Assembly (NCBI GenBank): GCA_000004695.1
Contig: CM000153.2
Location: 4,192,001 to 4,256,000 of the forward strand
DNA: 64,000 nucleotides
Source of the DNA: Dictyostelium discoideum
Lineage: Eukaryota
Direction of reading: 5' to 3'
Positions 1,633-4,600 of this stretch are shown in pieces. Under the pieces are notes generated by a model. It had not been told where the DNA came from. It made no database searches and saw only the letters and a program-made list of their open reading frames with translations. The position numbers and the translations under genes are program-made. Position 1 is the stretch's first letter; the number at the start of each line of letters is the position of its first letter.

Positions 1633-4600
1633 ATGAAAAGAAGGGAGTTCTTATTATTTTTCTTTTTATTCATATTTTTAAAGTTAAACCAAACAACTAT
1701 TGTTGAATCAGAATGTAAATATATTAAATTTATTTATTTATTATTTTATATTATTAAAATTCTAATTATTATTTTTTTTTAATATTATTATTAGATAAAT
1801 GTTTATATAATTTATTAAGTAAAATATTAAACGTATCAAAAAACTTTTATAAAGAATCTGATGATAGATATGCACTTTGTAATACTGTTGATAAATCCTA
1901 TTTTCTTTGGGCACAATGTTCTGAAGGTTTAGTTGATGATATTGTGTTGCATGGTGATAATGAAAGTACAATATTTTCAAACAATGATTTTAATTGTTTT
2001 TCTTCTTTGCGAAGTATGTAAGTAATAAAAATAATAATAATAATAATAATAATAATAATAATAATAATAATAATAATAATAATAATAATAATAATAATAA
2101 TAATAATAATAATAATAATAATAATAAAAGTAATTTTAATACTTAATAATATCATTTTAATAATATCTTTTATTATTTAAATAAAGAGACATATTTTTTA
2201 ATTATAAATTTGAAAGAAATTTTTTAATTGGGTTTTCAAATAATTTAGATAGTTTAAATTCACGTTCTTCAGACGAATCATTAATTGATATGGATGTCAA
2301 TATTAACAAAACAATAGCAATTAGATTTTTAAGAATTTATCAATTAACAATTAAAAGTGACTTTAATATTTATTTTTCAAAATTTGTTAATGTCAGAATT
2401 TTTGAAATTTACACACTCCAATCAAACTATCAAATTAATTATTTTAATGATTTGGTTAACTTAGAATGTAATTTTTATATGGTTTCATTTTCTTTAAATA
2501 ATATACCATCAATGAATAATATACAATCAAATAATTTGTAAGTTTTTATTTCTATTTTTTTTTTTTTTTTTTTTTTTATTTTTTTTTTTTTTTTATTTTT
2601 TTTTTTAAATATCAAATAATACTAAATTAATAACCTAAATTTATTAAATAGAAATATAAAGTTAAATTCAAATTTTAATATTGAATCATTTTCCAACTTA
2701 TCAACATACACAAAAATAGGTACTATAGAATTAACTCCAACAGATCCATCAATGATTTTCCCATTTCCATTCCTTCCTTCTGTTAAATCATTGTATTTAT
2801 TATTATTATTATTATTATTATTATTATTATTATTATTATTATTATTATTATTATTATTATTATTATTATTATTATTATTATTATTATTACTATTGTTGGT
2901 ATTGTTGATACCACCACCACTATTATTCAATTTTTGTTGTTGACAATGACTACATAAATTCCTATTGGTTAATAATAATTGATAAACATTTTCAATAGAT
3001 CTTGTAATTTCTTTTATTGATAATTTAATCTCTTTAATTTCTTTATTTTGAATTTCTAATTTTTCTGATAAATTTTCATTATCTTTATCTTTTTTATGTG
3101 TCATTTTTTTTTTTTTTTTATTTTGTTATTATTATTATTATTTTGTTATTTTTATTGACTATTGATTTATTTTTAACTATTATTATAATATAAAGAACAA
3201 TAAATTATCAAATAGATAAACCATTGGATTTTATTGATTTATCTAAATTTGATAATCTATTGTTGTTGTAGGTATTTTATTTTTAAATATTTTTCTTTTC
3301 TAAACTTTTCTAAACTTTTAACTTACTTTTTTTATAATTTATAATTATTAAAAGAAAAATACCAAATGTTGGAGTTTTATTTAATATAGATGGTGAATTA
3401 CCATTCATTAATATGCAAAATATGGAAAATATTTATAATTTGTAAGTTTTTTTATTTATTTATATCCTCGTTTTCATTGTAATTAAGGTATTAATTTTTA
3501 AATTATTTTACATCTTTTTTTCAATTAGAGAGTTTTCAAATGGGAAAATTAATTATTTAAATTTTACAAATTTACCACCCAGTTTACATTATTTAACAAT
3601 GGAAAATAATGGTATGACAGGTACGATACCAACTTGGTATCCAAATAATTTTTCAATGCTTTTTCTAAAGGGTAATAAGTTGACAGGAGAGTTTGATGAA
3701 AATTGGTATAATGATGATTTTGATATTAGCGATAACTATATTGATATTTATCTTCCATCATGTTTTAAATGTCATTATTTACAACCATCGATTAGCAGAC
3801 CAATATCTGGTAATAGATTTAAAAATTTCGACCCAAATAATTTAGAACCATGTTTAAGCATAGATTTAAATCTTTCATATAATAATTCCACTGATCAATT
3901 ACTATTGTATGGTAGTGATCTTGGATTTCCAACATCAATCATGATATTAGATAACCCAATTTTAGTATTTGATTATGGTGAACAATGCAAAGAAATTAGA
4001 ATTTTTAAGCCTAGATGGAAGATAGGAGAAGTACCAAAAGCAATTAATGTTACATTTCCTTTTTTACCACAAGGTCAAAGAACGTTTGAAATCTCTGCAT
4101 ATAATGAATTTTTACCACAAATCAGTAGTATAATTAGATATTCAGATTATTTTATTATCAGTGGTAAATACTTTGCATACAATCAGAGTGTAACTACTGT
4201 TTTAATTTCAAATCATTCATGTTCAATTATAACAAGTAATTTCAATGAAATTCAATGTTATCTTTCAAATTCAAATCAAATCATTAATAATGAAGAATTA
4301 ATTACAAGTATTATTCAAGTTATGAATGTTTCAAGTACATTTAATTTCAGAGTGAATCAAGCATGTAATGGTAATAATTGTCCAATCGCAGATTGTAATA
4401 AATATGGTGAATATAATTATGAAAGTGGTGTTTGTGATTGTTATTCAAATGAATGGAGAGGCTATTCATGTGAATTAAAATCATTAAATTGTTTAAGTAA
4501 TGATTGTAGCGGTAATGGTTATTGTAATAATATCATTGGTAAATGTGAATGTAATACAAATAGAGTATTCGATGATTGTAGTGGTATATTATGTAATAAT

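Follow-up and report, generated by a model that had tools for sequence, protein, structure and literature searches.

The 64-kb window analysed here (64,000 nucleotides, positions 4,192,001 to 4,256,000 on the forward strand of contig CM000153.2, assembly GCA_000004695.1) is DNA of Dictyostelium discoideum AX4 with a GC content of about 20%, and it holds tandem genes whose products match D. discoideum AX4 proteins. Our subject is one of these genes, DDB_G0286217, together with its fourth intron and an antisense open reading frame (ORF) that runs from this intron into the preceding exon. The annotated protein of DDB_G0286217 comprises 573 aa and starts at ATG 3413; upstream, a partial gene at 1..1172 matches the C-terminus of DDB_G0286211 (P0005). 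Assignment to the ComC-like group came from a Pfam scan, through the leucine-rich repeat (LRR) family LRR_ComC, IPT/TIG, the ComC beta-sandwich and EGF repeats. The comC product itself contains EGF domains as well as a signal peptide and a transmembrane region (listed as S+T), and the gene is restricted to group-4 dictyostelids (PMC4931340). A literature search yielded no mention of DDB_G0286211, DDB_G0286213, DDB_G0286215 or DDB_G0286217.

We found that the seven exons of DDB_G0286217 code for a full-length, 882-aa member of the ComC family (Table 1). A first-pass annotation, made from the sequence alone, had proposed several exons upstream of the annotated start. All GT and AG dinucleotides that it named are present and pair in phase, and joining its six exons gives a frame of 858 aa without a stop, ending at the existing stop codon 5219-5221. 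This multi-exon extension is real: it is collinear with full-length paralogues and restores the LRR_ComC domain, but seven exons are needed rather than six. Both ends of the 562-nt intron proposed at 2793..3354 are canonical splice sites, yet between them lie two introns, of 403 and 87 nt, flanking a missed exon of 72 nt. Because this exon is in phase 2 at either end, skipping it preserves the frame, which is why the six-exon version stayed open. The missed exon encodes TINYQIDKPLDFIDLSKFDNLLLL, and an equivalent repeat is found in 13 of 13 aligned paralogues and orthologues (consensus TINYQIDKPLDFIDLSKFENLxxL), with invariant residues (n = 10) at I268, N269, Y270, I272, P275, F278, I279, D280, S282 and L287. 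Once it is included, the alignment with 13 homologues from D. discoideum, D. cf. discoideum and D. citrinum is collinear and free of gaps at the junctions; every junction is canonical and in phase, and the frame reads openly to 882 aa.

Two further points concern the 5' exons. A frame break suspected at an A-run at 1977-1981 in exon 2 turned out to be a miscount: the sequence reads ...TTTTCAAACAATG..., with TTCAAACA at 1976-1983; the A-run (1979-1981) has just 3 nt, and the frame of exon 2 is open as the sequence stands. At the acceptor of exon 3 there is some ambiguity, as an in-frame AG (2215-2216) lies 30 nt downstream of 2186. Two paralogues (P0002, P0005) have gene models without the 10 residues between acceptors 2186 and 2216; eight other aligned paralogue proteins keep a DIFFNYKFER-type segment with conservative substitutions, and acceptor 2186 is therefore favoured. 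Over its full 573 aa, the public product (P0007) matches the C-terminus of the new model with 100% identity; it thus starts at an internal Met, and the signal-peptide-like N-terminus is missing from it along with the greater part of the LRR domain. This truncated model is probably a gene-prediction artefact.

Table 1. Exons, introns, repeats and inserted sequence at the DDB_G0286217 locus, in window coordinates (TRF, Tandem Repeats Finder).
Feature	Position	Strand	Description
Exon 1	1633..1714	+	ATG and signal-peptide-like N-terminus (MKRREFLLFFFLFIFLKLNQTTIVESE); ends in phase 1; donor GTAAAT at 1715; N-terminus collinear with 12 of 13 homologues
Exon 2	1795..2017	+	223 nt, open; acceptor AG ends at 1794, donor GTAAGT at 2018; junction residue Y28 and motif ESEYKCLYNLL conserved across homologues
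Intron 2	2018..2186	+	Contains (TAA)43 at 2023-2151 (TRF), complementary to the (TTA)33 of intron 4
Exon 3	2187..2537	+	351 nt, phase 2 to 2; acceptor AG ends at 2186, donor GTAAGT at 2538; alternative in-frame acceptor at 2216
Exon 4	2652..2792	+	141 nt, phase 2 to 2; acceptor AG ends at 2651, donor GTATTT at 2793; LRR segment inside the LRR_ComC match
Intron 4 (true extent)	2793..3195	+	403 nt; GTATTTA donor and ATATAAAG acceptor as in most paralogues; enlarged by insertion
(TTA)32.7 tract	2797-2894	+	TRF; native to this intron in the family; source of the poly-Asn run of the antisense ORF
Lineage-specific insertion	2890..3120	-	A16, ATG (3104-3102), then about 61-72 codons resembling the start of DICPUDRAFT_91894
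Tandem duplication, 20 nt	3118..3156	+	Two copies of TTATTTTGTTATTATTATTA (TRF); directly adjoins the insertion; unduplicated in paralogous introns
Exon 5 (missed in the first-pass annotation)	3196..3267	+	72 nt, phase 2 to 2; one 24-residue LRR unit, (L)TINYQIDKPLDFIDLSKFDNLLLL; acceptor AG 3194-3195, donor GT 3268
Intron 5	3268..3354	+	87 nt; donor GTAGGT
Exon 6 (exon 5 of the first-pass annotation)	3355..3441	+	Acceptor AG ends at 3354, donor GTAAGT at 3442; includes ATG 3413, the start in the AX4 annotation
Exon 7	3529..5221	+	Acceptor AG ends at 3528; end of the LRR region, TIG/beta-sandwich, EGF-like Cys repeats, transmembrane helix, short tail, stop codon
Antisense ORF, 160 codons	2622..3104	-	Chimera; no Pfam domain

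The corrected model also improves the domain assignment. In Pfam, LRR_ComC (PF24141, cut-off 27 bits) matched residues 151-388 of the 882-aa protein with 55.5 bits, a match that spans exons 3 to 7, compared with 43.3 bits over residues 202-364 of the 858-aa version and no match in the annotated 573-aa protein. TIG scored 28 bits, above its cut-off of 20.9, while EGF_TEN (36 bits, cut-off 65) and Beta-sand_ComC_2nd (20.7-21.5 bits, cut-off 27) stayed below theirs; the Cys-rich region is nearly invariant among paralogues. Read from the sequence, the protein begins with MKRRE followed by a hydrophobic stretch and carries LISLFILLFLIILVLLGFVFL near its C-terminus, and both are common to the paralogues. 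We infer from this order (signal peptide, LRR, beta-sandwich/TIG, EGF repeats, transmembrane helix, short tail) a putative type I membrane protein. That the signal-peptide-like N-terminus and the LRR repeats belong to the receptor-like gene downstream, as the first-pass annotation had supposed, is borne out by the collinearity of the paralogues and by the LRR_ComC match.

What sets the window gene apart is its fourth intron. We compared it with the exon-4-to-exon-5 segments of 13 paralogues from three other genomes (L001-L003), each taken with about 80 nt of flanking exon: the segment measures 501 nt in the window and 173-320 nt in the paralogues. Most paralogous introns begin with GTATTTA(TTA)n and end with ...ATTGACTATTGATTTATTTTTAACTATTATTATAATATAAAG, and intron 4 of the window has both of these ends, including a trinucleotide tract whose estimated size of about 33 units was accurate. 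The excess of roughly 216-250 nt follows the (TTA)n and consists of 2890..3104, then T16, then a 20-nt duplication. The sequence at 2890..~3120 is absent from 13 of 13 paralogous introns, among them that of the syntenic D. cf. discoideum orthologue (P0002), which we regard as the positional orthologue because collinearity between the window and L002 continues for 7.7 kb downstream. Its absence there and from the 12 other introns indicates that the insertion is specific to the AX4 lineage and young. The left boundary of the insert is lost within the (AAT)n and the right one lies between 3104 and ~3137; its GC content of 21.4% is exon-like, compared with 4-16% in the six introns. Introns of D. 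discoideum have a mean length of about 146 nt. In the close relative D. giganteum, the mean intron measures 129.5 nt and a gene has 1.96 introns (PMC13487327). A six-intron gene with a 403-nt intron is unusual for these genomes, but not extreme.

The possibility that faulty assembly or cloning of the reference produced the insert, for example by a chimeric join through the (AAT)n, arises from its borders, since both junctions fall into simple sequence, (TTA)n and a T-run, that is easiest to misassemble; besides, a second copy that could have served as source was not found. However, the insert is flanked by the correct halves of one and the same intron, in the right order and within about 100 nt, and a chimeric join would not return to the locus. 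We consider such an artefact extremely improbable.

As to the origin of the insert, HMMER, run exhaustively against 1.84 billion representative proteins, yielded a single genuine match, the D. purpureum protein DICPUDRAFT_91894 (P0019, XP_003287328; E = 1.2e-14); a second match, to an internally repetitive protein, was judged spurious by appearance. In BLASTP, the insert product and DICPUDRAFT_91894 share 64% identity over residues 1-61, starting from Met1 of both and ending where both turn Asn-rich, and an exact stretch of 16 residues (SIENVYQLLLTNRNLC) occurs in either. DICPUDRAFT_91894 carries BTB_2 at residues 199-286, and a Kelch-repeat gene piece lies 229 nt downstream of it in the D. 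purpureum locus. Its closest relative, SAMD00019534_110610 of Acytostelium subglobosum (P0021), is a single BTB_2 and Kelch protein of 591 aa. In the D. purpureum locus itself (GL871036.1, L004 10001-11917), DICPUDRAFT_91894 (343 aa, flagged as partial) stands beside a 219-aa Kelch model, and by comparison with the 591-aa protein the two are probably one mis-split BTB-Kelch gene. Codon usage points to a coding origin as well: the 5' half of the ORF, whose good codon usage had been remarked on in the first-pass annotation, scores +27 bits in the ORF frame alone, against -52 to -106 in the other five frames, a value reached by 0 of 2000 shuffles. Relative to the D. purpureum gene, dN/dS (the ratio of nonsynonymous to synonymous substitution rates) is 0.18 with saturated dS, and 0.08 over the core codons 17-61, and the sequence has therefore spent nearly its whole history under purifying selection. 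Together, these data show that the insert is foreign, coding-derived DNA, namely the A-run of a 5' untranslated region, the start codon and the first ~61-72 codons of a BTB_2-Kelch gene, inverted against the (TTA)n.

DICPUDRAFT_91894 is the only detectable relative of the insert. A metagenome scan for relatives of the ORF head came back empty, and the window contains no BTB or Kelch coding sequence: in tblastn with P0019, only residues 1-90 matched convincingly, and the other matches were weak and almost all within the Asn/Ser-rich region. The ORF being the remnant of a syntenic gene was likewise rejected, as the window and the D. purpureum locus have only the fragment in common and no neighbouring genes.

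The 160-codon minus-strand ORF at 2622..3104, which had been left undecided between a nested gene and an artefact ORF extended by a repeat, is present as described; its A-rich start context is the A16 that directly precedes the ATG, that is, T16 at 3105-3120 on the + strand. Dissection of this ORF revealed three parts. The inserted fragment makes up codons 1-72 (+0.38 bits per codon). Codons 73-102 (-0.31 bits per codon) come from the (TTA)n of the host intron, which in this direction becomes (AAT)n and thus poly-Asn, and codons 103-160 (-0.18 bits per codon) read exon 4 and the 3' end of intron 3 in antisense. The convincing look of the 5' half is accounted for by its being a captured BTB-Kelch coding fragment. 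The ORF is thus a chimera that came about through the insertion, and on these sequence grounds most likely a non-functional gene fragment rather than a nested gene: the evidence favours the artefact, with the qualification that its 5' half is a lineage-specific BTB-Kelch fragment. Pfam gave no match of BTB_2 (PF02214) to the ORF, and neither the 858-aa model, the 160-aa ORF nor a 540-aa ORF had an exact match in a collection of 15 billion proteins. A scan for bacterial promoters and terminators across 2500-3400 found no more than in shuffled sequence, and is irrelevant for a eukaryote.

Taken as a whole, we consider it likely that DDB_G0286217 is a seven-exon, 882-aa host gene whose intron 4 has captured a BTB-Kelch fragment, and that the antisense ORF is non-functional. 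Several observations weigh against this explanation. The ORF is fully open over its 160 codons and has a good start context, and a score as high as that of its tail came up in just 1 of 1000 shuffles, even though a frame opposite to coding sequence cannot be equated with random sequence. The parent gene was not found in D. discoideum, either for the N-terminal module (exhaustive HMMER search of predicted proteins) or for the BTB part (word-seeded search), so that the fragment itself may be what selection keeps. On the side of the host gene, dN/dS of the 5' exons relative to the paralogues is ~0.94, so that constraint is not demonstrated, and the corresponding value among the other paralogues is ~0.84. 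Moreover, neutrality predicts 1.2-3 new stops in the 5' exons at 2-5% divergence, with a probability of 0.05-0.3 of finding none, and their lack of stops is thus weak support for an intact gene. Concerning the missing parent, the word-seeded protein search overlooked P0019 in spite of the exact 16-residue stretch that it shares with the 72-aa query, a false negative that HMMER did not produce. Word-seeded negatives on short, compositionally biased queries are therefore unreliable, and the absence of a D. discoideum orthologue is tentative because the BTB part was searched with such a tool.

The first of these objections touch on the view of the ORF as a genuine nested gene of recent origin, in which the captured fragment is transcribed from the minus strand and yields either a small coiled-coil/CxxC and poly-Asn protein or an antisense RNA against host exon 4. 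Its ATG has stayed intact after the A16, strongly coding-like codon usage accompanies the open frame, the core of the module is highly conserved relative to D. purpureum (codons 17-61, see above), and a full-length parent was not detected in D. discoideum. Yet a low dN/dS is also what is expected of a recent copy of a functional gene under constraint. The insertion is young, missing as it is from the syntenic orthologue and the 12 other paralogous introns; BTB and Kelch domains are lacking, the last 58 codons lie antisense to a host exon and show weaker codon usage, and the sequence occurs in no annotated protein. Nor does the ORF have an evident promoter of its own, because the insert brings along only ~16-35 nt upstream of the ATG. 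A nested gene of this kind is, in our view, unlikely. It is very unlikely, moreover, that D. discoideum is without an annotated full-length BTB-Kelch counterpart and that the coiled-coil/CxxC module would survive solely as the chimeric ORF, be expressed as a very young gene and, by antisense transcription, modulate the host ComC-like receptor gene.

The remaining objections bear on whether the 5' exons might be a dead relic, the upstream part having been inactivated by the insertion or another lesion, with the locus either being a pseudogene or expressing just the 573-aa product. The AX4 annotation does start at Met 3413, the exon-like insert of ~230 nt contains strings that by eye resemble an acceptor (TTTTCAATAG) and donors (GGTATT, GGTTAA) and could disturb splicing of intron 4, and the high dN/dS of the 5' exons could be read in the same way. 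However, all six 5' exons are open (318 codons), with canonical splice sites that match those of the paralogues. A dN/dS near 0.84 among the other paralogues marks rapid N-terminal evolution as a property of the whole family and not as decay of the window copy; for this reason dN/dS was discarded as a pseudogene test for the 5' exons, being uninformative where the entire family lies at ~0.8-0.9. For the 3' part, dN/dS was 0.25-0.47 in comparisons involving the window gene. A product of 573 aa, devoid of signal-peptide-like N-terminus and LRR_ComC yet endowed with EGF/TIG and a transmembrane helix, is implausible for a membrane receptor, and gene predictors often truncate models at unusual introns. 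Given that splice sites and all exons are intact, the host gene is probably still spliced normally, and we judged it from its sequence to be intact or only very recently compromised; that the 5' exons are dead seems rather unlikely.

The tandem family as a whole displays a similar gradient of divergence. When window 1633-3441 was compared with the paralogues in L001-L003, the N-terminal LRR exons had a dN/dS of ~0.8-0.9, with several pairs above 1, and the next 900 nt, at the start of the last exon, mostly ~0.3-0.6. Exons 3 to 6 each begin and end in phase 2, which allows LRR modules to be added, lost or skipped without a change of frame. Fast N-terminal evolution together with modular LRR exons would suit a diversifying family of recognition or adhesion receptors.

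How the fragment came to lie in intron 4 can be narrowed down from its borders. Around the insert we saw neither terminal inverted repeats nor a target-site duplication or 3' poly(A); its flanks gave nothing but low-complexity repeat matches, and the A16 run precedes the ATG instead of closing the sense strand of the copy at its 3' end. Insertion of a retrocopy or of a DNA transposon was rejected for want of these hallmarks, with no transposon library searched. Both junctions in simple sequence and the adjoining 20-nt duplication suggest microhomology-mediated repair or template switching instead of transposition or retroposition. The donor gene very likely had an (AAT)n poly-Asn tract after codon 72, complementary to the (TTA)n of the intron, and at the other junction the A-run from the donor's 5' untranslated region would abut the T-rich intron beside the 20-nt duplication. 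Insertion would then probably have occurred through repair or template switching at the (AAT)n/(TTA)n and A/T-run microhomologies, after which the ATG of the insert would open a frame that happens to continue through (AAT)33, giving poly-Asn, and through the antisense of exon 4.

The trinucleotide tracts of introns 2 and 4, (TAA)43 and (TTA)33, are complementary to one another, and the same inverted arrangement is found in paralogues (L001 8385-8556/9162-9286 and 12506-12632/13268-13352). In the minimum-energy fold of 2018-2900, both arrays pair in an A-U duplex of about 90 bp, with -174 kcal/mol compared to -114 +/- 6 for shuffled sequences. Between the two arms of the predicted duplex lie exons 3 and 4 (492 nt together, removable in frame), and the structure might favour exon skipping or back-splicing.

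Elsewhere in the array, the AX4 model of DDB_G0286211 apparently splices out a 42-nt GT..AG "intron" near its 3' end (window 990-1031; P0005 residues ~329-345), which removes 14 residues (LSILFSLILLCLLG) of the transmembrane helix encoded by the continuous ORF 186..1172. The same model reads through an intron (NFINFIYILFSIR) where other family members have a splice junction, and both oddities look like annotation errors. Other D. discoideum strains carry shortened or split copies in this array (L001 15943-18294 and L003 18085-21384): one 647-aa model is without the equivalent of window 1502..2628, and another copy is split into models of 199 and 692 aa. The array therefore rearranges frequently.

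In terms of significance, the reference gene model is corrected from a 573-aa protein without leader or LRR domain to a ComC-like membrane protein of 882 aa, which bears on domain counts and on the design of knockout and expression studies for a fast-evolving tandem receptor family. The case illustrates that short exons of symmetric phase may be passed over unnoticed in AT-rich genomes, and that an attractive antisense ORF can arise from a gene fragment, a trinucleotide repeat and a reversed exon. As a capture of coding DNA at (AAT)n/(TTA)n tracts that complement each other, the insertion is clean and datable. In mechanistic terms nothing surprising emerges; rather, the outcome is a useful re-annotation and a neat gene-fragment capture of an ordinary kind.

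Among known systems, the window gene compares best with the ComC-like EGF-like domain-containing proteins (comC and the tandem paralogues DDB_G0286211 and DDB_G0286329; PF24141 LRR_ComC, PF24143, IPT/TIG, EGF), with which it shares domain order and exon structure. Its length falls into their common range of 850-930 aa, identity amounts to 57-89%, and it sits inside a tandem array of ComC-like genes. Unlike its relatives, it has a foreign insertion in intron 4 and a public model cut to 573 aa. The insert, for its part, resembles a BTB_2 (KCTD-type)/Kelch protein such as DICPUDRAFT_91894, to which it is 64% identical over the first 61 residues, ahead of an Asn-rich low-complexity region; in contrast to that protein, the window copy loses homology at the low-complexity region and is without the BTB_2 or Kelch part. 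With eukaryotic nested (intronic) genes, the antisense ORF has in common a start codon of its own, a host intron and the opposite strand, but it runs past the intron through host exon 4 into intron 3, is not kept in orthologous introns and is a fragment of a parent gene. The closest parallel to the insertion is provided by duplicated gene fragments and templated insertions at microhomology, which are likewise short, coding-derived and ectopic, with both junctions in simple repeats and a small tandem duplication alongside.

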